A stretch of DNA of 44,853 nt, from assembly GCA_964392445.1 (NCBI GenBank), contig CAYMPD010000007.1, positions 1 to 44,853 of the forward strand, given 5' to 3'. Source of the DNA: an uncultured archaeon. GTDB lineage: Archaea > Aenigmatarchaeota > Aenigmatarchaeia > CG10238-14. A program made the position numbers and the translations under genes. This document shows, in pieces, positions 9,822 through 34,043 of this stretch. How positions within the stretch are numbered: the stretch's first letter is position 1; each line of letters opens with the position of its first letter. Under the pieces are notes generated by a model. That model worked only from the letters and a program-made list of their open reading frames with translations. It was not told where the DNA came from and made no database searches.

Positions 9822-10292
9822 TCAAGTGGTCTTATCAAGGATCAAATGACTCAAATAACCCCAAATTATAACCAAAAAATAAAGTCCAAACTCAAATCCC
9901 GAAAATTCGAACATCAACCAAAGTAAAAAAGTTAATAATGAGGAAATTACTAAAGAGAACCAGAGAGTATGTGTTATCCCACGATGTTTAGTTGGGAAGA
10001 ATCGAAAAACTAGGTAAATAAATACAAAAATCACTACTGAAGAAACAACAGAGGTCACAGAGAAATTAATTATCAAATAACCAACTAAAACTACAGCAAG
10101 AATTAACGATACATACTTACGAATATTACTTTTAGGTGTGTCGATATCAGGAAAAATAGTAGCAAGTAAATTAAATAAAAGAAGGAAAAGAATTAGAAAA
10201 GGGTCTTTAATCCAACCCTGACCATAAAGAGAAATCAGAATAACAATAACAAAAATTAAGTCAAAGATTAAATGAATTTTCCAAGATGGCAA
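9822..10292 (-). CDS. Membrane-bound metal-dependent hydrolase (YdjM/DUF457-like); integration target
   Basis: H near N-terminus, FPDID, HRGITH, GYLSHLILD; TTG start; first codons contain the att core. Confidence 0.82.
   Translation of the reverse strand: MPSWKIHLIFDLIFVIVILISLYGQGWIKDPFLILFLLLFNLLATIFPDIDTPKSNIRKYVSLILAVVLVGYLIINFSVTSVVSSVVIFVFIYLVFRFFPTKHRGITHTLWFSLVISSLLTFLLWLMFEFSGFEFGLYFLVIIWGYLSHLILDKTT
10277..10291. repeat. attL core TTTTCCAAGATGGCA
   Basis: Exact 15-bp match to 34029-34043; 56 bp upstream of the integrase ATG. Confidence 0.85.
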
Positions 10293-13496: not shown

Positions 13497-14441
13497 ATGT
13501 CAGAGAGGAAATCCAAGAAATCGGTTATACTCAAAAGAATAGCAAGATCTTATGGAAGTTATACGAGATTGAGGGATGACACAGGGGTCAGTGATAGGAC
13601 CTTATCCAAATGGTTAGGTGTTTTTGAAGAAAAGGGTCTAATTGAGAAAGTATTATCAAATGGAAGTATTGTTTATAAAATAACAGAAAAGGGATTGAGT
13701 TCATTAAAAAATGAAAAAAATAATATAAAACCTAAGAAAAAGACCAAGATATTCCAATCGTATAGAAGATATTTAGAAGATGAGAGGACATTCGATGCTG
13801 AACATCGAGAAATACATCCTCCCCGAACTAAGGATTATGATAAAGCCTATGATTTCGTACATTATTCTTATGTTGATGATAGTCCCAAGAAGATAACTAA
13901 AATTATGGAAGAATTTAAGATCGATGTGAGTCTAACTATTATCTATTCGCTCTTGTACGCAAAACCAATGAAAATTGATGAATTGTTTAATTTAATGTCT
14001 ATCTATCCAGGTATCACGAGAGAATACATAGAATCAAAAATAAATCTATTATTGGGAAAGGGAATTTTAGATACATTGACGAGACAGGAACTCAAAAATT
14101 GGGGAATAATTGATTTTAAAGATACTTATTATAACGTAAGATCTCATTTATTGATAAGATTCCTATTCGGAGATATATTTAATATTATTAATCTTAAACA
14201 ATCCAAAATTGACTTATTATTTGATTTCTTTGTTTCTAAAGAATTCAGAGAAAAATACAAGACTACATTCCAAGATGCTGAATCTATAGATATTTTTTCC
14301 TATTCAGAGAAATTGATATATCATGAAATATTGGATCGATTTAATGAAGACGTGATATTCTCAAATAATCTGATAGATATCTTCTTATCAAATAAAAGAA
14401 GGATTCCTTTGTCGATAAGATTGGGTAATGCAATAAATTAA
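13497..14441 (+). CDS. wHTH transcriptional regulator with long C-terminal domain (candidate repressor)
   Basis: YTRLRDDTGVSDRTLSKWLGVFEEKGLIEK...VYKITEKG winged helix; GGTGA RBS. Confidence 0.7.
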   Translation: MSERKSKKSVILKRIARSYGSYTRLRDDTGVSDRTLSKWLGVFEEKGLIEKVLSNGSIVYKITEKGLSSLKNEKNNIKPKKKTKIFQSYRRYLEDERTFDAEHREIHPPRTKDYDKAYDFVHYSYVDDSPKKITKIMEEFKIDVSLTIIYSLLYAKPMKIDELFNLMSIYPGITREYIESKINLLLGKGILDTLTRQELKNWGIIDFKDTYYNVRSHLLIRFLFGDIFNIINLKQSKIDLLFDFFVSKEFREKYKTTFQDAESIDIFSYSEKLIYHEILDRFNEDVIFSNNLIDIFLSNKRRIPLSIRLGNAIN

Positions 14442-14442
14442 C

Positions 14443-14967
14443 CTATCTTCTATGTGCCCTCGTAAAAGGTGAAGACCTCTCTCTCACTTTCAAAACTGTA
14501 AATGGTCTATGTCTATCGAAATCATAACCCTTTACTGCAAGAGACAAAGCCCAGAAATTGCTCAAGTCTTTGTTGATAATCTCATTGTTGTTACTGACAG
14601 CCCTGTTCGTTTCACTTATCAACTTCTTACAATTACTAGGTAAGATTAGTTCTTTACTCAAGAGCTTACCTTTAACAGAATCTATGAATGATTTCTTGTT
14701 ATCATCAGTGATCTTCTTATCTGTCCTTATACCTCTGTGAATATTACGGTCAATAACCAAGTTTCTACCTACTATAGTATTTGTGAGCAACCTATTCAAT
14801 TCCAAATCAAGTAAATACTTGGATATACTATCCAAATCTTGAGTTTCGGTTATCTCCTCAATTCTTAGTTTGCCGTTAGACTGTGATAGCAAAACTGAAC
14901 AGAATTCAAAGCTATCTTCGTTGAGATACACTCCACAATAATACCCTTCTAAATCTTTCTCACGCAT
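14443..14967 (-). CDS. Degenerate paralogue of the terminase RNase H-like nuclease domain
   Basis: Co-linear by eye with the C-terminal domain of the adjacent TerL; catalytic Asp positions not conserved. Confidence 0.55.
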   Translation of the reverse strand: MREKDLEGYYCGVYLNEDSFEFCSVLLSQSNGKLRIEEITETQDLDSISKYLLDLELNRLLTNTIVGRNLVIDRNIHRGIRTDKKITDDNKKSFIDSVKGKLLSKELILPSNCKKLISETNRAVSNNNEIINKDLSNFWALSLAVKGYDFDRHRPFTVLKVRERSSPFTRAHRR

Positions 14968-16232
14968 ACTTCATAATCCTCCGTAAACTTTTCCGCTACA
15001 TGATGCATTGGATTTCTATTAGCAAATACACATAAAGCCAGGGACATCACCATGTCGTCATGGTGCGGGTTTTTACTGAACTTGAAATTCCTCAGTTCGT
15101 TTATCAATTTACTGTCATTCGGAATTATTAATTTCTTGTTCTCGAACTTATTCCTCAGGAAGCTCAACAGATCCAACCTACTTTGCTTGGTGAATTTGAA
15201 CCCTTCCACTGGTAAACCTTTGTCTCGGATTTCCTCGAAAAGTGGTTCACCCAATCCCGTCTGATCAACAAGAATCTTGATGGGTCTGAAATTGTTGTTT
15301 ATCTGGTCTAGTACTTTCAACTGCTGGGAATAGTCAATCTTGTTGAACCTCTCGATATGAAATACCTTCAGATTGTTGGATTCAGTTCTTTGTACAACTG
15401 TGAATACCGAGAAGTCTTTGAGTTTAGCAAAGTCACAACCTACAAAATAAGTTCTGTCTTTTCCATGATTAACCATATCATATTCCTGAACACATGGGAG
15501 AATTAATGAATAGGGGAAGTAAGCGGTCTTCTCTTCCAGAAATTCGGCATTATACTCCTGCCTAAAGGTTAGTTCATCCATCTCATTTCTATCTTTTTCC
15601 AGATCCCTTTTGTTGATTGAAGGACATTGTTCTGATTTTATTTGCGACACAAAAGCACTCTTCCAGTTACTAAAGCATTCCCAGAAGAATCCTCGTTTTC
15701 CCAGAGGTGTTGATATTAACCATAAATTACCACCAGTCCGAATTAGCATTGGTTTGACAGCTCGATAATAAATTGAATCATCCTTGAAATGAGCAGCTTC
15801 GTCTATGTAAATAACGTCAGCAGAGTAACCAAGTATTGTTGAGATTGAATCTGGTAATGATATTATCCTAGAACCTGTGTCTAATTCTAGTTCGGTCTTA
15901 CTCCAGTTGTCAGAGTCTATACTGGGCTTCAGGAATTCATTAGTCTCTATTGTGGTCTTGATTTCTTTTAGGATTCTGACCGATTGTCTTAGTGAGGGCG
16001 AGAGTATCAACTGGAGGGAATTGGGTTGAGTAAACGCAGTATAGATGGACATAACTTTGATTACTGTTGATTTACCTGACTGTCGTCCCCAGACTAGGAG
16101 TTTGTTCTTAGAACTATCCAGAATTGCTTCTCTCTGATAATCATGTGGTTTGAAATCAAGAACTTGAGAAAGGAAGAAGATTGGATCTTGTTTACTTTTC
16201 TTCACAAATTCAGTTTTATCCATCATCACCAT
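14949..16232 (-). CDS. terL: Terminase large subunit
   Basis: Q-motif PHDYQ, Walker A GRQSGKS, Walker B IYIDEAAH, ISTP coupling motif, RQEYNAEF, nuclease VGCDFAK, LVDQTG, HDDMV. Confidence 0.92.
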   Translation of the reverse strand: MVMMDKTEFVKKSKQDPIFFLSQVLDFKPHDYQREAILDSSKNKLLVWGRQSGKSTVIKVMSIYTAFTQPNSLQLILSPSLRQSVRILKEIKTTIETNEFLKPSIDSDNWSKTELELDTGSRIISLPDSISTILGYSADVIYIDEAAHFKDDSIYYRAVKPMLIRTGGNLWLISTPLGKRGFFWECFSNWKSAFVSQIKSEQCPSINKRDLEKDRNEMDELTFRQEYNAEFLEEKTAYFPYSLILPCVQEYDMVNHGKDRTYFVGCDFAKLKDFSVFTVVQRTESNNLKVFHIERFNKIDYSQQLKVLDQINNNFRPIKILVDQTGLGEPLFEEIRDKGLPVEGFKFTKQSRLDLLSFLRNKFENKKLIIPNDSKLINELRNFKFSKNPHHDDMVMSLALCVFANRNPMHHVAEKFTEDYEVCVRKI

Positions 16233-16650
16233 CTTCGAATAGTTTGGATAATGTTAGATTCCCGGATAATTCTATGGACTTTGTTTGTTTTGGTGCTACA
16301 CCTAATTTCTGGAGGTTAAACACATAATCGTTCATTAATTTTCTCCTGAGTTTCATTATTCGGATACAGGAATTTACGTCGCCTTTTGCTTTGGCTTCTT
16401 TGTATAGATCCATTAATTCTTTTATGGAATTCTTGTGCGTGGTTTCTACTTCAACAAGTATTTGGGAATACTCTTCGTTTGATAATTGTTGTTTCAATTC
16501 TTTATCTAGTGCTTCAATATCTCTGTGGACCGTTCTTCTATTCACGTCTAGTTCTTCTGCTATTTCTGTGTTATTATATCCCTGGAAGAGTAATTCCATG
16601 ACCTTCTGTCTTCTGGCTACGACTTTCGGATGTGTGACATTCTGGGACAT
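16216..16650 (-). CDS. terS: Putative terminase small subunit (N-terminal HTH)
   Basis: QGYNNTEIAEELDVNRRTVHRDI HTH, helical middle region, overlaps the terL start. Confidence 0.7.
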   Translation of the reverse strand: MSQNVTHPKVVARRQKVMELLFQGYNNTEIAEELDVNRRTVHRDIEALDKELKQQLSNEEYSQILVEVETTHKNSIKELMDLYKEAKAKGDVNSCIRIMKLRRKLMNDYVFNLQKLGVAPKQTKSIELSGNLTLSKLFEDGDDG

Positions 16651-16841: not shown

Positions 16842-18161
16842 ATGACAGCTGAAATTGTGATAATGAACAAAGAAGCAATAGCTATTGCAGCCGATAGTGC
16901 GGTCACGATGATTGAGGAGGGGGGACAAAAAATTAAAACATCTGCAAATAAAGTTTTTACTTTGTCTAAGTATCACCCCGTTGGCATAATGGTTTATGGG
17001 GGAGCAATTTTTATGGGAATTCCATGGGAGACCATAATTAAGATTTACAGAAATAAATTGGGAAAAAAGAGGTTTGATACATTAAATGAATATACTGAGG
17101 ATTTCATAAAATTTCTAGATAATGGTAATCCATTATTCCCATCTTCTTTACAAGATGATTATTTAAAGAGCTCCATCTATGCTTACTTTAATTTTATTAA
17201 GATTAAAATCAAGGAAGAAGTAGAATCTAAAATTAATGAAAAGGGAGAGATCAGTAATAAAGAAATTAAAAAAATAGTATCGGAAATAATAAAAGAGGAT
17301 TATAGAACTTGGAACGAAACTGATAATATCTCATCTATTCCTGAAAAATATAATAGAGATATAATTGATAAGTACGGGAAGATAATTGATGAATCCATAG
17401 AAGAGATTTTTGAGGAATTACCCATGTCTAAAATCCTGTCAGATAAATTAAAAAAAATTGCAACGAGCTTATTTTCAAAATTTCCAGAAGGCGTTCAAAA
17501 AAGTGGAATTTCTGGTCTTGTTATAACTGGTTTTGGGGATAAAGAGACTTTTCCTTCAGTTAAATCGTTTTTTATTGAGGGAGTAGTTAATGATAGATTA
17601 AAATATAAAGAAGACGGGGATAGGTCTATGGAAATTAATTTTAAGTCAGGAGCCTCAATAATCCCTTTTGCTCAAAGTGAAATGGTAGAAATGTTCATGG
17701 AAGGAATAGATCCTTTCTATAGAAACATTGAGAAAAATTATCTATCTGAAGTTTTTAGTAAATATGCAGAAATAATTATTGATAGCATAGAAAAATATTC
17801 TAAAAATGAAAAAAATAAACTCAAAAAGAAACTGAATAAAATGACTAAAAAGATACTTAACGATCACAATGAAAAATTAGAAAACTACAGAAAGAGAAAG
17901 TATATTATCCCCGTTATAAATGTAGTTACGATGCTCCCAAAAGATGAGCTTGCAGCAATGGCAGAATCACTCGTAAATTTAACGTCCTTTAAAAGAAAAG
18001 TTACTATGGAAAGTGAAACAGTTGGTGGTCCAATTGACGTTGCTGTAATTTCCAAGGGTGATGGTTTTATATGGATTAAAAGAAAACATTATTTCAAGGG
18101 AGAACTGAACCCCCAGTTTTTTGCAAACTATTATAGAGGTGTGGGATATGAAAAAGAATAA
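16842..18161 (+). CDS. Putative Ntn-hydrolase (proteasome beta/HslV-like) with N-terminal Thr and large helical insertion
   Basis: M-T-AEIVIMNKEAIAIAADSAVT...NKVF and C-terminal ETVGGPIDVAVISKGDG match the two halves of the proteasome beta pattern. Confidence 0.62.
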   Translation: MTAEIVIMNKEAIAIAADSAVTMIEEGGQKIKTSANKVFTLSKYHPVGIMVYGGAIFMGIPWETIIKIYRNKLGKKRFDTLNEYTEDFIKFLDNGNPLFPSSLQDDYLKSSIYAYFNFIKIKIKEEVESKINEKGEISNKEIKKIVSEIIKEDYRTWNETDNISSIPEKYNRDIIDKYGKIIDESIEEIFEELPMSKILSDKLKKIATSLFSKFPEGVQKSGISGLVITGFGDKETFPSVKSFFIEGVVNDRLKYKEDGDRSMEINFKSGASIIPFAQSEMVEMFMEGIDPFYRNIEKNYLSEVFSKYAEIIIDSIEKYSKNEKNKLKKKLNKMTKKILNDHNEKLENYRKRKYIIPVINVVTMLPKDELAAMAESLVNLTSFKRKVTMESETVGGPIDVAVISKGDGFIWIKRKHYFKGELNPQFFANYYRGVGYEKE

Positions 18162-23867: not shown

Positions 23868-24476
23868 TCATAGATTACACCTATCACAATCCCCATTAAA
23901 CCTACAACTTCTGCATTTGTTGGCATTGGTTGTTGGTACTGGAACTCTTTTCCCGTTAAGAATGTCAAGTATTCTCTGCGTGGTTTCTTTGACCATATCT
24001 CTATGTCTGTTAGCAAACGGTTTCTCCCAAAACACTTGCTGAGTATCCCTGTTTCTTAGAACGGCTATAAGCGGCATTCCAGGATCAAGGTATTCCTCAA
24101 AAGCTAAACAATAGCCCCATACCTGCTTCTTGTTGGACATGTAAGCGTATGTGCCTGGTTTGTCGTCTATTATCACTATTTGACTTGGACTGAAATGCAC
24201 TTCATCTATAAGACCGTAAAGCAATTTTCCTCTTACTTCTAACTCTCTTGCGATTAGTGTGATTTTCTCCTTTTTAGATTTCTTCAGAGTTTGCTTGGGT
24301 GTTAATTCTAACTCTGCTTTCTTTTCATGCTCTTTTTCTAATTCAGAATGAACTTTTTTACCTAATTTCATTTTCTTTGTTTCTTCTGCTCTTACTCCCC
24401 TGACTCGTTCCAGGAAGATCTGATACTCACAATATGCTTGTGTGTTAAGTAGGCTTATTGGTATCTCGTTAATCAT
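23868..24476 (-). CDS. Solo Cas4-like PD-(D/E)XK nuclease with 4-Cys Fe-S motif
   Basis: AYCEYQ, GKKVH, GLIDEV, IIDDKP, QVWGY, KCRSCRFNGDC; no CRISPR array seen. Confidence 0.85.
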   Translation of the reverse strand: MINEIPISLLNTQAYCEYQIFLERVRGVRAEETKKMKLGKKVHSELEKEHEKKAELELTPKQTLKKSKKEKITLIARELEVRGKLLYGLIDEVHFSPSQIVIIDDKPGTYAYMSNKKQVWGYCLAFEEYLDPGMPLIAVLRNRDTQQVFWEKPFANRHRDMVKETTQRILDILNGKRVPVPTTNANKCRSCRFNGDCDRCNL

Positions 24477-24527
24477 TGGATTAGAAATGGTAGATTAATC
24501 TTTTAAGACTTAAGGAAATTCTCTTTG

Positions 24528-27500
24528 TTATTTATTACTATTAAACTCCTCAATAATCTTGATTTTTTCAGGATTAAGCCCATATAATTTATAAACTAAT
24601 TGATCAATTTCTTTTTCTAGTTTTTTGACTTTTGCTTGTTTCTCAGGATTATCTAAATATTCGCTATCTTTAGTTATCAAGAGGATTTTATCTACTAGTT
24701 TTATGATGTCTGAAGTATTTCGAAGGTCCTTTGGGATTGGGATTTTATCTAAATATTGCGTGTGATACTTGTAGAACCCTCCAGAAAACATCGGACTGAT
24801 ATTTCTTATGAAAAAATCTATTAAAGGACTATTCAAAAGGGCGGTAAATATTTTGTAATTTTCCAAATCTTTCTGTCGTAAGATTATAGCGTAACAGTCA
24901 TGGTCTATACACATGAAATTATTCTTGTCGCTAAAATCATCTAATGCAAAACGATTTCTCTTGGATAAATTTGGGGTAATTATTTTTTTGGTTGCAAACA
25001 CTTCTATAGTACGTGGGTTCCAAATCTCATACCACTCCTTTCCCGCTTTAATTACATACGTTCTTTTCTTAAGTTGAGATTTATGAGTTTCTAAGTAAGT
25101 TTTTGTATTTGGAAAATTATTTAAATTTACTAATGAGGTTTTCCCATCTCTTAATTCATATGGATAAATTACATAACGATTGTCCCATCCAATGAAATAC
25201 TTTTTGATTTTCCTACCTTTAGGTAACTTTTTGATTAATTCAGGTTCGAGATTATGTTTTTTTATCGTCTCTTTATTTACAAAATAAGCTTTATTATTCC
25301 CCGTAATTAGTCCTTCATAGATTTTTTCACTATGGGTAGCTAAATTATCATATTTACTACTTTTTAACTTTTTCAGGAGTTTTAATATCTTCTTGTTGAC
25401 AAAAACCCAATTGTTCTTATCCAAATTAGATTGGTTGTATTTAAACGATGAAATATCTTCATTTTCAAATTTAGGTAAGCCTTTGGATAGGTTTAAACTA
25501 TGTAACAAACTCGAAGAGATTTGTTTAACATTAGCATAATAGATAATATTATCCTCGAGCTTTTCCTTTCTAAGCAAAATTATACATGGATAATTAGTTG
25601 CCCCCTCAAAAACTCCTTTATCACTGAAATCTATATAGATATTAATTGAGGTATGCTTCAATATAAATTCACGTATCTTACGACCGTAATGGGTATTGGT
25701 AAATTTATTTGGCATGATATATGATATGCTACCTCTTTTTCTTAAGATTTTGATCCCTAATTCCGTAAAAAGCACATAGAGATCAAATTTCCCTTTGGCC
25801 GAAATGAAGTTTGACTTATAGGCAGACTTAATTTCTTTATCAATTGATTGTATTCTAACATATGGTGGATTTCCTATAACAACATCAAATCCCGGATTCT
25901 CCCTCTGAAAAACTTCTGCAAAATACAATTTCCATAAGAAAAATGGTTTTGCTTTGTTCTTTTTATATTGTTTTAATTTTTTCATGGATTTCTCATTACC
26001 CTGTTCTTTGAGTGTTTCTTCAATTAATTCCCATTCTAATCTGTTTATTTTTTCTTTATGTTCTCTCTTGAGTTTCCTATTTTGTTCATTGAAGAATTTC
26101 TTCTGTAATTTTTTTAGGTCTTTTAGTTTTATCTGAGATTCCCTTATTCTTCTTTGCACAGCTTCATTCAAAGTTAAATTCCTTTCATTGTTATTGAATT
26201 TTGAAATAATCTTCTCCTTCTTCTTTCTTAGTCGTCGAATTTTTCTATCTATATCTTTTAGATTCTTTTCATCGGAACCTTTTCTGGCAATAATTCCCTT
26301 CTCTTCATATAATTCATTAATTTCATTATCAATTTCTTTTATTTTAGGAGAAACTTTCTCTTCAACTTCCCCAAGTAATCTCTCATCAAAAAGCTTGATC
26401 CCTTCAAATTCTTCTAATAAACTGTTACCACACATTATCTTATGGTCTAGATTTGGTAAGGGATTAATATTGGTTATATCCGTCTCATCTACAATTAAAG
26501 ATAACCACATCCTCAACTTACAAATCTGTACAGCTGATGGTTCAATATCAACCCCGTAAAGAGAATCTTCTATTATCTTCTTCTTCATATCATAGACATT
26601 CTCTTCTTTCCCAGAATATATTGATAATATGGATTGAGCTTTCTTTATTTCTTTCAACATGCCGATAAGAAATGCACCTGATCCACATGCCGGATCAACT
26701 ATTTTTATTTTCCCTAATAGACTATTGATCCTTTCTTGATTTTTCTCAATTGAATTCGGAATTATGCTTTCTTCATCCACATCACGTAACTCCCCATATC
26801 TTCTCCTTTGCTCCTGTGCTCTTATTGTTCGATCAAGGACTACATCTCCCATTTGGACAAATTTCTTAATGTCTTTATGAGGTATAGATATGTTTGTTTC
26901 AAGGTAGTTTATTAAACTCTGCTGGCACATATAATGAACTATTTCTCTGGGAGTATAGTATGCACCTTTAGATTTTCTCTCTTTGACATCTAGCAGTTTC
27001 TCAAAAACTTTACCTAGCATTTCTGGATCAACAGCAACCTCCTTTTCTAATGGTTCATCTTCTTTTACCGTAAAATTAAACCTATCAAAGGTATCAAAAA
27101 TTTCCTTGAAAATGGAATTATCCAGAGTTATCTCTGTCCCAGCCCAATCGTAATCATTTATAGGTTCAAATAAACCACCATTCAAGAAAGGAATTTTACA
27201 ATTAAACCTGCTATAATAGTCATGGTTAGCTCTCCTATCTTCTGCCAATGCTTCATAAAACAAGGGTTCTAATATTTCGTTAAAAAAGTTATCGTAATGA
27301 ACTATTCCCTTTTCAAATAGTTTTCTCATGAAATCTTTAGGTCCTGTTCCCCATTTATAAAAACCTTCTCCTGGACTCTTTTTAACCCCGAGCCATCCCT
27401 TCTTTTGTAAGAAATATAGGAATACAATTTGTCCCAACAATTTTTTAGCAAAATCAATGGTAGAAATATTTTTCTTTTCAAACTCTCCTTTGACATATTT

Positions 27501-28148
27501 ATTCTTATTGAGCAATTTTTCTAGTTCCTCTTTTAAATCGAGATAAAGTTCTTTATACTTCTTAAAGAAGTCTTCTGTAACTTTTTCAATACTAAAGGAT
27601 TCTTCAATTTCATCAGAAAGAGGATTCATCTCATCTTCCATAATCAATTCCAAGAATTGTTTTCTACATGTATGGTTTGGCTCATTCGGGCCAACTAAGA
27701 ACGAGTATCTCTTTGCGGGAGTAAGTTCCTTTTTCACTTTAACTTTCCCAGATTCACCCTTAACAAGATTATATTCCATCTTAACAAAAGAAAAACGCCA
27801 ATCTACCGTATCATCATAGAAAGCAACTAACGCAGCTTCTTTACGCATTTTTCCAAGCCAATTAGCTACGAAATTTCTTTGCATAGTCCTAGCTCTGTTT
27901 TTAGAGGAGGTTCTCTTTAACTTAACAACAAGTACTTCCATTTCTTTAGAATTTTTATCCTTGTAATTTCCTATCTGTATAAATTCTTCAATATAGTTCT
28001 TGTACTCATTAGCGATATAATTTGTACAATCCCTTTCCTTGACTTTAAACTCATTAAGTAGCTCTTTAACAAATTTAACATACCTTTTCAAATCAAAATT
28101 AGTCTTGAAAGTTTCATTGAGTAATTTAATCGTATTTTCTCGGTTCAT
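24528..28148 (-). CDS. Type IIG (Eco57I-like) restriction-modification enzyme, N6-adenine MTase
   Basis: FLNGGLF, GAYYTPREIV, motif I DPACGSGAFL, motif IV GNPPY, TaqI-C-like TRD. Confidence 0.9.
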   Translation of the reverse strand: MNRENTIKLLNETFKTNFDLKRYVKFVKELLNEFKVKERDCTNYIANEYKNYIEEFIQIGNYKDKNSKEMEVLVVKLKRTSSKNRARTMQRNFVANWLGKMRKEAALVAFYDDTVDWRFSFVKMEYNLVKGESGKVKVKKELTPAKRYSFLVGPNEPNHTCRKQFLELIMEDEMNPLSDEIEESFSIEKVTEDFFKKYKELYLDLKEELEKLLNKNKYVKGEFEKKNISTIDFAKKLLGQIVFLYFLQKKGWLGVKKSPGEGFYKWGTGPKDFMRKLFEKGIVHYDNFFNEILEPLFYEALAEDRRANHDYYSRFNCKIPFLNGGLFEPINDYDWAGTEITLDNSIFKEIFDTFDRFNFTVKEDEPLEKEVAVDPEMLGKVFEKLLDVKERKSKGAYYTPREIVHYMCQQSLINYLETNISIPHKDIKKFVQMGDVVLDRTIRAQEQRRRYGELRDVDEESIIPNSIEKNQERINSLLGKIKIVDPACGSGAFLIGMLKEIKKAQSILSIYSGKEENVYDMKKKIIEDSLYGVDIEPSAVQICKLRMWLSLIVDETDITNINPLPNLDHKIMCGNSLLEEFEGIKLFDERLLGEVEEKVSPKIKEIDNEINELYEEKGIIARKGSDEKNLKDIDRKIRRLRKKKEKIISKFNNNERNLTLNEAVQRRIRESQIKLKDLKKLQKKFFNEQNRKLKREHKEKINRLEWELIEETLKEQGNEKSMKKLKQYKKNKAKPFFLWKLYFAEVFQRENPGFDVVIGNPPYVRIQSIDKEIKSAYKSNFISAKGKFDLYVLFTELGIKILRKRGSISYIMPNKFTNTHYGRKIREFILKHTSINIYIDFSDKGVFEGATNYPCIILLRKEKLEDNIIYYANVKQISSSLLHSLNLSKGLPKFENEDISSFKYNQSNLDKNNWVFVNKKILKLLKKLKSSKYDNLATHSEKIYEGLITGNNKAYFVNKETIKKHNLEPELIKKLPKGRKIKKYFIGWDNRYVIYPYELRDGKTSLVNLNNFPNTKTYLETHKSQLKKRTYVIKAGKEWYEIWNPRTIEVFATKKIITPNLSKRNRFALDDFSDKNNFMCIDHDCYAIILRQKDLENYKIFTALLNSPLIDFFIRNISPMFSGGFYKYHTQYLDKIPIPKDLRNTSDIIKLVDKILLITKDSEYLDNPEKQAKVKKLEKEIDQLVYKLYGLNPEKIKIIEEFNSNK

Positions 28149-31100
28149 TTATTTCCCCACTAAATATTCTGATAGAATAACCTCTTTGGGTCCTGAAAGA
28201 TCTGCTGCTGTTCCAGCTAAATTTTCCTTAAATAGGAGAGGAGAAACACCTGCCCTTATTCTTGCTAAAATCTTGAGAGGGTTTGTTTCTCTCTCTATTT
28301 TTTCTAATATCTTTTTAACGGTCTTCTTAGCTATTCCACCTTCTTTCAACAACATGTAAAAATCCTGTAAATATTCCTCATCTTCTTCTGTAAATTCTTC
28401 TGAGTTCCTAATAGCTTTCAATATCTTAATCATCTTCGCCTCATGACTTCTACCTCCAGGACTTTTTAATTCTCCACTGAGATCTGTGAAGACTCTATTA
28501 AATTCCTTTTTATTTTCCTCTAAATATTCATAGAAATCATCACCTAATTTTTCTCTCTTCACGTTTTTCTTAGATTCCAAAATTTCGGCAGCTTCAGAGA
28601 ATTCAAGCTCTTTGACTTCTTTATTTCCAGATTGGTAAATCTTTCTTAGTTTCCCCTTTCTAAAAAAGGTTAATAGGGAATTATAGTTCTCCTCGTATTT
28701 TTTTGCAGTCCTTGCTTTCTTAGGGAGTCTTTTAATTCTCTCGAACAATTTTTTATCATTATCTCTAATATCTCTTAAAAGTTTAAGATATTTCAGCTCT
28801 GGATCTTCTTCATCCTCACCTACAATTAATTCTTTAGAGGCTAATTTCGTGAATAGATCATGAGATTTTATTTCTTCATCAGTTAGTAATTTAGCATCAT
28901 TCCCAAGCATTTCAATAAAGGTTTTTATTTTCGCCTCTGCGGCTTCCTTTAAACCGATGTTCTTATTAATCGGACCAGCTGGGAAGAAATTATATGTGTA
29001 GATGTTATCGAATGGTGGACTCTTACTGACTCTATTTACACGTCCTACCCGCTGCATCATTTTAACTGGATTCCACGGAATATCATAATTAATAACAACA
29101 TTAGATCGATGTAAGCTAACACCCTCTGATAAAAGATCAGTGGAGATCAATATCCTTATATCATCCTTTTGCTTTTTCTTTGGGAGATTAGCATCATAAT
29201 TATCAATGACTTTTTTTCTTTCATATTCCGAAGAATCTCCTGAGATAGCCATAACCTTGTTTTCAAACTCGGGATCCAAGTTCTTTTCAACATATTCAGC
29301 TGTTTCTTTTGACTCTGTAAAGACAAGTAATTTATGTTTCTTTAGTATATTATCTTGTTTAAGTAATTCAATAAATTTCTCCAGTTTAGGATCGTGATTT
29401 ACCTCCCGCCACATATTTTCTATTTGTTCTAATATTTCACGATCATGCTTTAGATGCTTGATAAAATTAGATTTAAACTCTTCTGATGAATATCTTTGAG
29501 CTTTATCCTCCTCAATAAGTTTCTGCACAGCCTCGTCATTATCACTTTCCAATAATTCGAATATCTTGTTGATATGCTTCTTACTGGTAAAAACTTGTCC
29601 CTTTTCATACTCTTCAATGAATCTATCGTAAGCATGAATGAATCTATTTATAGATTTCTTAAATGCGAAAAAACTACTTTCCAATCTTTTCAAGAGCAGG
29701 ATTTTCATAAATCCACCCATGTTCTTCTGAGAAAGTTCTTCTGGTTGAGAAATATCCTTTTTAAGATATAATAAGGGCGTGTATCTCGCGTATTTGAATT
29801 TCTTCATTATTAGCTCAAGAGTTTTATCGAATATTTCATCCAACTTTCCATCAAAATGATAGAGAATTGGTTTTGGTTTTTTAACTTCAGGGAATTTCAA
29901 ACCTTGTTTTTCTAAATCCTTCTTATAATATTTAATTATACTACTCCTTGTTCTTCTTACCATTAAATGTCTTAGAACATTTTTTCTTATACTTCTAGCG
30001 TTCTCTTGGACAACTTCAATATATTTTTCCTTATCTTTCACTCTATCGAGATTCTTAACTCTTCTGTGAAGTCTTTTGAAATATCTTTCTAGATCTCTTA
30101 CTTTAGGATTAGGTAATGTTGATCTATGAGCCCTTTGGAACAATTTTATTTGAGATAAAATATCAAGAGGGGTATTGTTCATGGGTGTTGCTGAAACCAG
30201 TATAATTCTTTTACCTCTACATATCTCAAACAATTTCTCATACATTTGAGTCATTTCATTTCGGAATCTATGACTCTCATCAATAATTATGTTCTTGTAC
30301 TTACTTGGGTCCCTTGACAATACTTTATCTAGCTTCCCTATAGACTGGAAATGAGCACTGACTCGCACATCAAGAAATACATTGGGCCAAGAGCCGGGAC
30401 TATCTCTGTTCAGTAAATTTGGAGGAGCGATCACTAAAGTTCCACCATCCAACTCTTTTGCAAGTATAGCAGCGATATAAGTTTTTCCCAAACCAACTAC
30501 ATCTGAGACGAAGACACCACCATACTCTTCTAGTTTCATTTTAGCGTCTCTAACAGCATCCTTTTGATATTCCAAATCCATAACATTTTCCGGTAATCCT
30601 TCCTCGAATAATTCCCGTTTATCTATGTTGATTTTCTCTCTAAGGTATTCGTAAAGGAATTTAAGGTATAAATCATAAGGTGTGATTTCTTTATTTAACC
30701 ACGTTTTTTTCTTGATAATATCAACATACTTTTCCGATACATCAACAGAATTTTCCCATAGTTCATTAAACTTCTCCAGTGAAAATTCGTAATCTGATAT
30801 ATTCTTCAATTCTACATTAAATTCCAGGTTATCTTTCAGACCAGATTTCGTGAAATTACTAGAGCCCGTTATTACTCTCCCATCATCTCTATCCCCCCTT
30901 CTGAATGTCATTATATAAAGTTTCGCATGAATTTTTTTAGTGGGATAAGCCCTTATTTCTAATTTCCCAGATTTCAACCACTCAACAAATTTCTTAGCCC
31001 CTTTTTCAACTTTTTTAGAATCCTTGGAATATTCAAATTCTTCAATAGTTTTACTAGAAATACTCTTCTTGATTTCTTTGGAGGACCGATAAAAGTTATC

Positions 31101-31364
31101 TAGAGATTCTTCTTCCCTCGATTCTTGAATCAAATCATACGCTTTTTTCCCCGTACTTATACCAATGAGAACTCTTATCTTCTCTGTTTTTTCTAATGAC
31201 TCATAAAGTTCATGGAATCCTGTTGCACGAAAATAACCCACTAGACAGTCAAAGAAACGGGTGTCTTTAATCAAGTGAGAGAATCTATCTACTAGTCTTT
31301 TACCTTCTTCATTTGTGATGAAAGTTAAGTCAGTTGTCATTTTCGAACCCCTATCAATATACAT
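28149..31364 (-). CDS. PLD (HKD) nuclease-SNF2-like helicase fusion
   Basis: HAKLYI...GSSNFT; DVVGLGKT; IIIDESH; SATP; SEGVSL...NYDIPWNP...QRVGRVNR; likely start ATG 31340. Confidence 0.9.
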   Translation of the reverse strand: MYIDRGSKMTTDLTFITNEEGKRLVDRFSHLIKDTRFFDCLVGYFRATGFHELYESLEKTEKIRVLIGISTGKKAYDLIQESREEESLDNFYRSSKEIKKSISSKTIEEFEYSKDSKKVEKGAKKFVEWLKSGKLEIRAYPTKKIHAKLYIMTFRRGDRDDGRVITGSSNFTKSGLKDNLEFNVELKNISDYEFSLEKFNELWENSVDVSEKYVDIIKKKTWLNKEITPYDLYLKFLYEYLREKINIDKRELFEEGLPENVMDLEYQKDAVRDAKMKLEEYGGVFVSDVVGLGKTYIAAILAKELDGGTLVIAPPNLLNRDSPGSWPNVFLDVRVSAHFQSIGKLDKVLSRDPSKYKNIIIDESHRFRNEMTQMYEKLFEICRGKRIILVSATPMNNTPLDILSQIKLFQRAHRSTLPNPKVRDLERYFKRLHRRVKNLDRVKDKEKYIEVVQENARSIRKNVLRHLMVRRTRSSIIKYYKKDLEKQGLKFPEVKKPKPILYHFDGKLDEIFDKTLELIMKKFKYARYTPLLYLKKDISQPEELSQKNMGGFMKILLLKRLESSFFAFKKSINRFIHAYDRFIEEYEKGQVFTSKKHINKIFELLESDNDEAVQKLIEEDKAQRYSSEEFKSNFIKHLKHDREILEQIENMWREVNHDPKLEKFIELLKQDNILKKHKLLVFTESKETAEYVEKNLDPEFENKVMAISGDSSEYERKKVIDNYDANLPKKKQKDDIRILISTDLLSEGVSLHRSNVVINYDIPWNPVKMMQRVGRVNRVSKSPPFDNIYTYNFFPAGPINKNIGLKEAAEAKIKTFIEMLGNDAKLLTDEEIKSHDLFTKLASKELIVGEDEEDPELKYLKLLRDIRDNDKKLFERIKRLPKKARTAKKYEENYNSLLTFFRKGKLRKIYQSGNKEVKELEFSEAAEILESKKNVKREKLGDDFYEYLEENKKEFNRVFTDLSGELKSPGGRSHEAKMIKILKAIRNSEEFTEEDEEYLQDFYMLLKEGGIAKKTVKKILEKIERETNPLKILARIRAGVSPLLFKENLAGTAADLSGPKEVILSEYLVGK

Positions 31365-31368
31365 CTCG

Positions 31369-31602
31369 TTATTCTTTTAAAACCTCTTCACCCTTATCCG
31401 TTATACTTAAAGCAAAAGATCTTCCTTCACCCACTCTTTTAACAATCAAACCTAAATCCTCAATTGATTTCAAAGAAGTTGAAACAACCGGTCTTGAAAG
31501 TTTAATAAACTCCTGAACATCTTTAACTTGACAACCAGGGTTTTCTTTGATGAATCGTAAGATTCTGCTAGTTCTTTTTTCCATATTATCTATGTTAATC
31601 AT
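31369..31602 (-). CDS. Small wHTH protein (MarR-like), possible controller of the R-M module
   Basis: IKENPGCQVKDVQEFIKLSRPVVSTSLKSIEDLGLI...SITDKG. Confidence 0.75.
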   Translation of the reverse strand: MINIDNMEKRTSRILRFIKENPGCQVKDVQEFIKLSRPVVSTSLKSIEDLGLIVKRVGEGRSFALSITDKGEEVLKE

Positions 31603-31638
31603 TGTGAATTAATAGATTTAAAAAACTATGATTTATCT

Positions 31639-32862
31639 TCAATCTCCATCAAACTTCTCCCTATCACTAAGTTTTGACAAATACATCCTATAACTCTCTT
31701 CTACAGTCTGATACTCCTTTACTCTATCCACCAATTCCTTGCTCCACCCAAACTCCTCAGGATTACGAACTATTTTCCCAAGCGTCCTAACATTCAAGTT
31801 TGATACTTCCATCCACTTACCTGAATCCTTAATCAATCCATCCAGTTCATCCCTTCTCTTATCAGATGTTCTTGGGAACTTAGATATGCGATACAATTTT
31901 ACCCGGAGTTTTTCGTCATTTCCTCTTATTATCTCAACTCCTTCTTCCTTTGAATATGCTATCAATGCCTCCTGGACTTTAGATAATTCTTCTTCTATTT
32001 CTTTCACTAAAGTCTTCTTTTTCTCAGTTAGTTCAACATACTTATTCACAAGTTTGACTCCTGGTTCATTCAGATATTCATTGACTTCCATTTCTTCTGT
32101 CATTTTAATGTGCTTCCAAAGAGGACACATCTCCTGATATTCACACCATTTACATAAAGAAGTCTGGTTGGGTGGGAACTCCGTAGTGTTTTCTACTTTC
32201 TCTATTAATCTTAAAATCTCCCTTTTGAGTTCTTTTAAGTCTTCCTTTGTTCTCTCAGAAGTAATTATCTTATCAAACACCAAATAATGCCATACTAATT
32301 TAACACTCTTCACATCATCCCACATCTCTTTCAAGGCTAACTGATACAATGCCAACTGGGTATCATTATCTTTCTCTTCTTGGGTGGGTAGATTACCAGA
32401 GGTCTTGTAGTCGTGAATCCCGTAATTACTATCACCATCTTCGGACAACCTGTCTATATAACCAACCAATTCATTACCATTACCAAGATCAACAATAACC
32501 TGTTTCTCGGTAGCAAGGGTTTTATCCCCATCAAAAGGATGATGTCTATTCCAATAGTCTTCAATACACTTCTTTCCTAACTCCTTGTAATTCCCGGGTG
32601 TGTATTCCTTCCTGACTACAACCACATTATCCGTCCAATTCTTAGTCCATTCCTTTTCGTAGAAATTTAGAATATCCCGCAAGGAAACCTTCTTACACAT
32701 CTTGATATCATCATACAACTTTTCCAGTGTTTCATGAACCCTAGCACCCACGAATGATTCTATTCCTTCAACATCCGATTTCACTTTATCTATGTATTTG
32801 AGCTTGTATTTCAAAGGACAATTCTTGAACGTGGTTAGTCTTGAATGAGAATAGCGTGTCAT
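31639..32862 (-). CDS. RecB/AddB-family PD-(D/E)XK nuclease with Fe-S cysteines and C-terminal extension
   Basis: YSHSRL...CPLKY, GARVHETLE, GYIDRL, HDYKT, QLALY, CKWCEYQEMCP. Confidence 0.87.
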   Translation of the reverse strand: MTRYSHSRLTTFKNCPLKYKLKYIDKVKSDVEGIESFVGARVHETLEKLYDDIKMCKKVSLRDILNFYEKEWTKNWTDNVVVVRKEYTPGNYKELGKKCIEDYWNRHHPFDGDKTLATEKQVIVDLGNGNELVGYIDRLSEDGDSNYGIHDYKTSGNLPTQEEKDNDTQLALYQLALKEMWDDVKSVKLVWHYLVFDKIITSERTKEDLKELKREILRLIEKVENTTEFPPNQTSLCKWCEYQEMCPLWKHIKMTEEMEVNEYLNEPGVKLVNKYVELTEKKKTLVKEIEEELSKVQEALIAYSKEEGVEIIRGNDEKLRVKLYRISKFPRTSDKRRDELDGLIKDSGKWMEVSNLNVRTLGKIVRNPEEFGWSKELVDRVKEYQTVEESYRMYLSKLSDREKFDGD

Positions 32863-34028: not shown

Positions 34029-34043
34029 TTTTCCAAGATGGCA
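34029..34043. repeat. attR core TTTTCCAAGATGGCA
   Basis: Exact match to 10277-10291; on the minus strand it reads ATG CCA TCT TGG AAA from 34044, the original 5' end of the hydrolase gene. Confidence 0.85.

Follow-up and report, generated by a model that had tools for sequence, protein, structure and literature searches.

On the minus strand of the window, by which we mean the entire 44,853-nucleotide (nt) stretch of DNA that was analyzed, a terS-like gene (16216 to 16650), terL (14949 to 16232), and a small open reading frame, ORF174 (14443 to 14967), form a tight operon. The terS-like gene overlaps the start of terL and encodes a protein with a helix-turn-helix and a coiled coil, which matches Pfam Terminase_5 (27.1 bits, over the cutoff) and the small-terminase family PHROG 2538. 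The terL product is complete (427 amino acids [aa]): it matches Pfam Terminase_6N and Terminase_6C as well as PHROG 2 (E = 1e-44) and, in an alignment of 58 homologs, has all of the invariant and near-invariant residues, with R50, G53, and K54 in Walker A, E145 in Walker B, and D267, D273, H391, D392, and D393 among the nuclease residues, all of whose acidic members are present. ORF174 specifies a 174-aa protein that appears to be a stand-alone, diverged, and inactive homolog of the RNase H-like nuclease domain of TerL. Its core (residues 7 to 148) resembles residues ~255 to 410 of TerL (15003 to 15470, minus strand) and is followed by a basic tail.

These genes belong to an inserted element. 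The POR, ydjM-like, (orf77), and ATP-grasp genes are contiguous in three genomes of the same genus (the empty site; loci L081 to L083), and in the window the ydjM and ATP-grasp genes are separated by an insert of ~23.7 kb (10.3 to 34.0 kb). It is flanked by a 15-nt direct repeat, TTTTCCAAGATGGCA, that duplicates the MPSWK start of ydjM, with the left copy, at the integrase end, occupying 10277 to 10291 and the right copy 34029 to 34043, both on the plus strand. Along with the packaging genes, the element carries genes for a tyrosine integrase, a winged-helix (wHTH) protein, and a PHROG 5990 protein, and a defense-like block on the minus strand (23868 to 32862) that comprises a Cas4-like nuclease, an Eco57I/MmeI-type methylase (1,206 aa, with a TaqI-like specificity domain), a PLD-SNF2 helicase (1,071 aa; PLD plus SNF2/DEAD helicase), and a PD-(D/E)XK nuclease (407 aa). 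Portal, capsid, protease, and tail genes were not detected with Pfam and PHROGs, in a scan that covered all but six ORFs at ~19.0 to 23.1 kb.

Two plus-strand genes border the operon. The 439-aa ORF at 16842 to 18161, transcribed divergently from terS, has an end-to-end match to PHROG 5990 (unknown function; E = 4.6e-125) and none in Pfam. At the other end, and convergent with ORF174, lies the gene for a 314-aa winged-helix protein (13497 to 14441) with weak PHROG matches (E = 6e-5 to 6e-3) to replication-initiator O-like and DnaD-like families; judged by these matches, it may be the replication initiator of the element. An archaeal model best fits the small-subunit rRNA of the host, whose genome is 1.2 Mb in size and 95% complete; the genomes of its relatives range from 0.3 to 1.3 Mb. 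The same genome holds a second head-packaging module (contig C9, locus L014, 721 to 8932) encoding, besides a DNA-binding protein, a 484-aa TerL and a 522-aa portal, along with ORFs of 118 and 1,170 aa. The C9 TerL is 29% identical to the TerL of the window and reads H-G-E where the family has H-D-D.

The first-pass annotation had ORF174 overlapping the terL stop codon, and this arrangement holds. The ORF174 ATG (14967 to 14965) lies 19 nt within terL, whose TAG occupies 14951 to 14949, and in the shared segment (14949 to 14967) ORF174 is read in the -1 frame relative to terL. A TGA stands two codons upstream of the ATG; ORF174 is a separate ORF in a frame different from that of terL and is not fused to a packaging ATPase domain. 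A Shine-Dalgarno-like GGAGG motif (14978 to 14982, minus strand) lies within the terL coding sequence, 10 nt 5' of the ORF174 ATG. Elsewhere in this genome, GGAGG precedes 4% of long ORFs, against a background of 0.7%, mostly with spacers of 4 to 10 nt, and Shine-Dalgarno-like motifs are 5-fold enriched before long ORFs. No canonical slippery heptamer was found in the 19-nt overlap, where -1 frameshifting may yield a TerL-ORF174 fusion.

When ORF174 is compared directly with the adjacent TerL, BLASTP aligns residues 9 to 119 collinearly with TerL residues 262 to 379 (23% identity over 120 columns) at an E value of 8.9, which is not significant, and Smith-Waterman and semiglobal alignments give z scores of 2.5 to 3.0 that are matched by 42 of 3,000 and 81 of 3,000 shuffles, respectively. 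Sequence searches of Pfam, PHROGs, and the PDB returned no match for ORF174, with Pfam Terminase_6C silent at E ≤ 1, and hhalign against a full-length TerL profile assigned a probability of only 18%. The BLASTP value, the unmatched searches, and the full-length result are all compatible with a chance resemblance, in which ORF174 would be an unrelated small protein, or no gene at all, that aligns by accident. Comparisons at the level of the domain make this very improbable. With a nuclease-domain profile built from 58 TerLs, hmmsearch scored ORF174 at 12.4 bits, which none of 2,000 shuffles reached (maximum, 8.5), and hhalign aligned it over 139 columns with a probability of 85% (P = 6.4e-6; score, 37.0). 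That score is ~10 standard deviations above those of both shuffled and natural null sets, the first consisting of 400 shuffles of ORF174 (mean, 12.6; maximum, 23.2) and the second of 150 natural ORFs of 150 to 200 aa taken from this AT-rich genome (mean, 12.9; maximum, 21.7).

The hhalign match pairs ORF174 residues 7 to 148 with columns 6 to 161 of the 171-column profile, which amounts to the whole domain; it is collinear across every secondary-structure element, and the lengths of the segments agree, both of which argue against an accidental alignment. Independent methods concur: unguided MAFFT places ORF174 in the same register as hhalign, 19 of the 30 nearest ORF174 clusters in the ESM Atlas carry Terminase_6C (scores, 0.94 to 0.95) and consist of viral proteins of 161 to 187 aa, and Foldseek ranks a large terminase first, though not significantly, for the single-sequence model described below. 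Four blocks that the first-pass annotation had paired by eye between TerL and ORF174 were recovered in the same register by hhalign and by MAFFT. Judged on these alignments, ORF174 is a very distant but true homolog of the terminase nuclease domain, a conclusion that we hold with high confidence.

Directly after the last helix of the domain, within residues 146 to 166 (14470 to 14532), ORF174 reads K-G-Y-D-F-D-R-H-R-P-F-T-V-L-K-V, a stretch resembling the start of beta-1/beta-2 in the nuclease domain (G-x-D-F...D-F-S/T-V). It scores 0.4 bits by hmmsearch and 12.9 by hhalign, which are null-level values, and it may be the trace of a further tandem copy or a product of chance.

Among the columns of the TerL family alignment, five are at least 80% Asp or Glu, and in the hhalign register none of the five is acidic in ORF174 (Y14, S19, T62, L135, and S136). 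In the family, metal is bound by an Asp in beta-1, an Asp or Glu in beta-4, and an Asp-Asp pair in the C-terminal helix. TerL D267, the invariant first catalytic Asp of beta-1, corresponds to Tyr14 (codon at 14926 to 14928) in both the hhalign and the MAFFT registers, in agreement with the earlier reading that a Tyr had replaced this residue. TerL D273 corresponds to S19; D323, the second metal-binding acidic position, corresponds to Thr62 (14782 to 14784) or, in the MAFFT register, to Asn63; and D392/D393, the Asp-Asp of the HDD motif, correspond to Leu135-Ser136 (14560 to 14565) or, by MAFFT, to Lys133-Asp134. The HDD motif, likewise described beforehand as degraded, reads D-L-S in the hhalign register and N-K-D in that of MAFFT. 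Two of the acidic positions move by one or two residues in the MAFFT alignment, which leaves ORF174 with no more than a single acidic residue, Asp134, which could stand at the last catalytic position in that register. The loss of every conserved metal-binding acidic residue makes two-metal DNA cutting by ORF174 almost certainly impossible, and it is very likely that the protein is catalytically dead. The hydrophobic positions of the domain are largely kept, with ORF174 hydrophobic in 30 of the 37 family hydrophobic columns versus 14 of the 79 other columns.

The single-sequence AlphaFold model of ORF174 is poor (pLDDT, 38.6), with an order of secondary-structure elements that fits an RNase H-like fold (beta-beta-beta-alpha-beta-alpha...), and a Foldseek search with this model ranked the TerL of phage D6E first of 350,542 chains at an E value of 0.3, which is not significant. 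Supplying AlphaFold with an alignment of terminase nuclease domains gave a pLDDT of 79.4, and the top Foldseek matches were then TerL nucleases, with TM scores of 0.5 to 0.6 to the terminase nucleases of D6E, PhiV-1, G20c, T4 gp17, RB49, and herpesvirus. This result is circular, since the alignment consists of terminase domains, and the model indicates only that the ORF174 sequence is compatible with an RNase H-like fold. In the structural prediction proposed in the first-pass annotation as a check, the expected fold was thus obtained only with the terminase-domain alignment.

As to the origin of ORF174, its highest identity (22%) is to the neighboring TerL (P0002). After correction for composition, the z scores for P0002, P0008, and P0007 are equal (9.0, 8.95, and 8.8). 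A maximum-likelihood (ML) tree places ORF174 beside P0008 and P0044; its branch, at 2.98 substitutions per site, is 10 times the median, and the placement is not firm because the branch is so long. An approximately unbiased (AU) test did not reject a clade of ORF174 with the neighboring TerL (P = 0.33). Between the LINEL helix and HDD lies a beta-hairpin of 16 to 18 residues in ORF174 and 15 in TerL, against a family median of 26 and at least 24 residues in the nearest TerL homologs; the short hairpin is possibly a shared derived trait of TerL and ORF174. In TerL, this unusually short hairpin corresponds to residues ~377 to 391 (15003 to 15080), and in other terminases the hairpin has been linked to the regulation of nuclease activity.

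Identity, z scores, hairpin length, tree, and AU test together are compatible with a local duplication but do not prove one, and ORF174 could just as well be left over from a related terL allele that was replaced. ORF174 had initially been described as an inactive duplicate of the nuclease domain of the TerL just upstream. The part of this description that stands, on the strength of hhalign and its nulls, is that a stand-alone, apparently dead homolog lies directly 3' of an intact TerL; copying from this particular TerL is unproven, given the equal scores of P0008 and P0007 after correction and the position in the ML tree. The best identity and the short hairpin favor the clade of the neighboring TerL as the source of ORF174.

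Is ORF174 a gene or a decaying remnant? Its 174 codons contain no stops, whereas 200,000 shuffles of its DNA average 14.3 stops, with none stop-free, and its in-frame coding score of 0.19 is like those of terL (0.11) and ORF386 (0.14), as opposed to -0.4 to -1.9 for the five other frames. The first-pass annotation had reasoned that an ORF that is unique and shows pseudogene-like decay would count against a pseudonuclease. ORF174 is indeed without a homolog in the collections searched, but signs of decay are absent: the frame is open, the coding score resembles those of its neighbors, and the hydrophobic columns are kept. The retained core, open frame, coding-like codons, and GGAGG motif give it the look of a pseudoenzyme and not of a decaying pseudogene.

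An alternative is that ORF174 is an evolutionary relic, a 3' remnant of a previous or duplicated terL that has stayed open yet lacks a function, having arisen, for example, by partial tandem duplication or by the replacement of terL with a related allele. ORF174 would then not be needed, since the neighboring TerL has a nuclease of its own, and an ORF that is unique to its element, that has lost all catalytic residues, and that sits on a very long branch (2.98 substitutions per site versus a median of 0.29) is what such a history could leave behind. The element itself looks reduced, its portal and capsid genes not having been found, and the odd Arg/Pro/His-rich tail of ORF174 has a lower coding score (0.11). 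Yet neutral sequence of 35% G+C would be expected to hold ~14 stops at such divergence, and ORF174 has none; its changes avoid the hydrophobic core (30 of 37 columns), as random decay would not; its codon usage is as coding-like as that of its neighbors; and its Shine-Dalgarno motif lies at a working distance. Its orphan status says little in this regard, because the TerL lineage is unsampled, with no relative of the TerL of this element exceeding 37% identity. We consider a relic unlikely, albeit the most serious of the alternatives, and these sequence features suggest that selection has probably maintained ORF174.

Homologs were sought widely. Neither a word search of 5.8 billion proteins nor a phmmer search of 1.8 billion representative proteins found a homolog of ORF174, the protein searches returning ORF174 itself and a spurious match to a 2,416-aa repeat protein; there was none in 60 related genomes, and no second copy was found in its own genome. 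No second nuclease-like ORF occurred in 35 viral contigs from the nearest retrievable TerL clade, in which a Mu-like portal gene usually comes next after TerL, or in two further genomes, from the same order, that encode a related TerL. A search for related loci with the TerL of the element as the query found none among genomes or viral contigs, and one with P0008 likewise found none. The suggestion that a triplet of terS, terL, and pseudonuclease might recur in other archaeal elements thus found no counterpart in these 35 viral contigs and two genomes. Candidate cryptic nuclease copies 3' of TerL in relatives, including six viral ORFs, were rejected, with hhalign scores of only 7.5 to 17. ORF174 is the single example found, from one archaeal lineage, and our literature search found no published description of dead, stand-alone copies of the TerL nuclease domain.

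The best overall explanation, to which we assign a probability of roughly 60%, is that ORF174 is a translated, dead, and diverged nuclease-domain copy that would act by binding. ORF174 would be made from the terS-terL-ORF174 message, with its translation coupled to that of terL through the 19-nt overlap and its own GGAGG motif. We infer that the protein binds instead of cutting, as a noncatalytic accessory of the terminase of the element, and its most economical partner would be the terminase with which it is co-translated. Such an accessory would use the kept surfaces of the nuclease domain, together with its Arg-rich C-terminal arm, to contact TerL, DNA, or a portal, and these contacts would modulate cleavage or motor assembly. 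In phage D6E, the nuclease domain of TerL locks onto the ATPase site together with the arm that follows the last helix, and this arm has been proposed to dock on the portal (PMC5727402). ORF174 keeps the last helix of the nuclease domain and continues into a 25-residue Arg/His-rich arm (residues 150 to 174; 14446 to 14520) that has a calculated pI of 12 and is modeled with low confidence. The specific assignment of ORF174 to the terminase is more tentative and somewhat less likely than not.

A noncatalytic nuclease domain might also act against, or adapt the element to, another virus. If the element, lacking a capsid of its own, packages itself into the capsids of a helper virus, ORF174 could occupy or adapt the docking site on the portal or terminase of that helper. 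This corresponds to the portal-binding decoy of the first-pass annotation, whose proposed roles for ORF174 (regulator of headful cleavage, portal decoy, or terminase mimic) are all speculative. An integrase, TerS, and an intact TerL are encoded in the bounded 23.7-kb insertion, in which structural genes were not detected, the same genome contains a second TerL-plus-portal module (on contig C9), and the C-terminal part of TerL nuclease domains has been implicated in portal docking (PMC5727402), all of which would suit such a role. Weighing against it, ORF174 resembles the C9 TerL no more than it does the neighboring TerL, the strong basicity of its tail contrasts with the mixed or acidic tail of TerL, and both the interaction and the satellite behavior are putative; we regard this role as improbable. 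As a specific mimic of the C9 TerL, ORF174 was rejected on account of the equal similarity to its own neighbor. The wider version, in which ORF174 is a trans-acting mimic of the nuclease domain that would dock on a helper portal or terminase and bias packaging toward a capsid-less, satellite-like element, is similarly a long shot, but if true it would be a previously undescribed principle of interference or hijacking.

Defense systems offer a further conceivable target, for terminase sensors exist in both bacteria and archaea (PMC13601566), and a harmless look-alike of the nuclease domain could soak up those of the host (Avs or Upx type). SeAvs3 and KpAvs2 are examples of sensors that bind a natively folded nuclease domain, and viruses carry stand-alone paralogs of TerL domains, such as T4 vs.8 (PMC13601566). 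SeAvs3, though, reads active-site residues (PMC13601566), which ORF174 does not have; late coexpression with terL would be poor timing for a decoy; and the element sits integrated in its own host and carries defense genes for that host. We find an immune decoy highly implausible.

Among viral DNA motors, large terminases are the best studied, and we know of no role assigned to stand-alone, inactive copies of their nuclease domain. ORF174 suggests that the nuclease fold has persisted in the absence of catalysis, in an archaeal element with a terminase but without detected capsid genes. Were such copies to bind TerL, DNA, or portals, genome packaging would gain a layer of regulation or conflict, and this binding would provide a handle on the docking of nuclease domains in trans.

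Compared with the solved nucleases of Terminase_6C (PF17289), namely, those of D6E (5oe8 and 5oe9), G20c (5m1f), T4 gp17 (3cpe), RB49 (3c6h), and P74-26 (5tge), ORF174 is collinear over the whole domain with matching segment lengths. It shares a G in beta-1, F-T/S-V in beta-2, K-x-T...K, L-I-x-P, K-L-I-x-E, and an F-W-A-L-S-L-A helix. Unlike the Terminase_6C domains of large terminases, it stands as a protein of 174 aa that lacks an ATPase domain, has other residues in all five conserved acidic columns, and ends in a strongly basic tail, and it falls below the Pfam reporting threshold. By these sequence comparisons, ORF174 is a homolog of Terminase_6C and not a functional member.

Nuclease-domain genes that stand on their own also occur in a sister TerL clade in which the large terminase is naturally split. 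In at least 12 viral contigs from IMG/VR (L050 to L066), an ATPase-only gene of ~250 to 260 aa is followed by a nuclease gene of ~220 to 240 aa with an intact D...D...HDD. Like those subunits, ORF174 is a nuclease-domain-only gene situated directly 3' of a gene encoding a terminase ATPase, and overlap between the two genes is frequent in the split terminases. The subunits, however, retain D...D...HDD and are the only nucleases of their viruses, whereas ORF174 is apparently dead and follows a full-length TerL whose nuclease is intact. The possibility that ORF174 is itself such a subunit was rejected: its hhalign score against 10 stand-alone subunits is at the null level (12.9), the upstream TerL is complete (Terminase_6N plus Terminase_6C), and the catalytic residues are lost.

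A second parallel is with T4 vs.8, a stand-alone paralog of the TerL ATPase domain, with no known role, that is encoded beside a complete TerL (PMC13601566). ORF174 is likewise a single-domain TerL homolog beside a complete TerL, but the two differ in what was copied and what was kept: vs.8 copies the ATPase domain and retains the Walker motifs, whereas in ORF174 the copied domain is the nuclease and the catalytic residues are gone.
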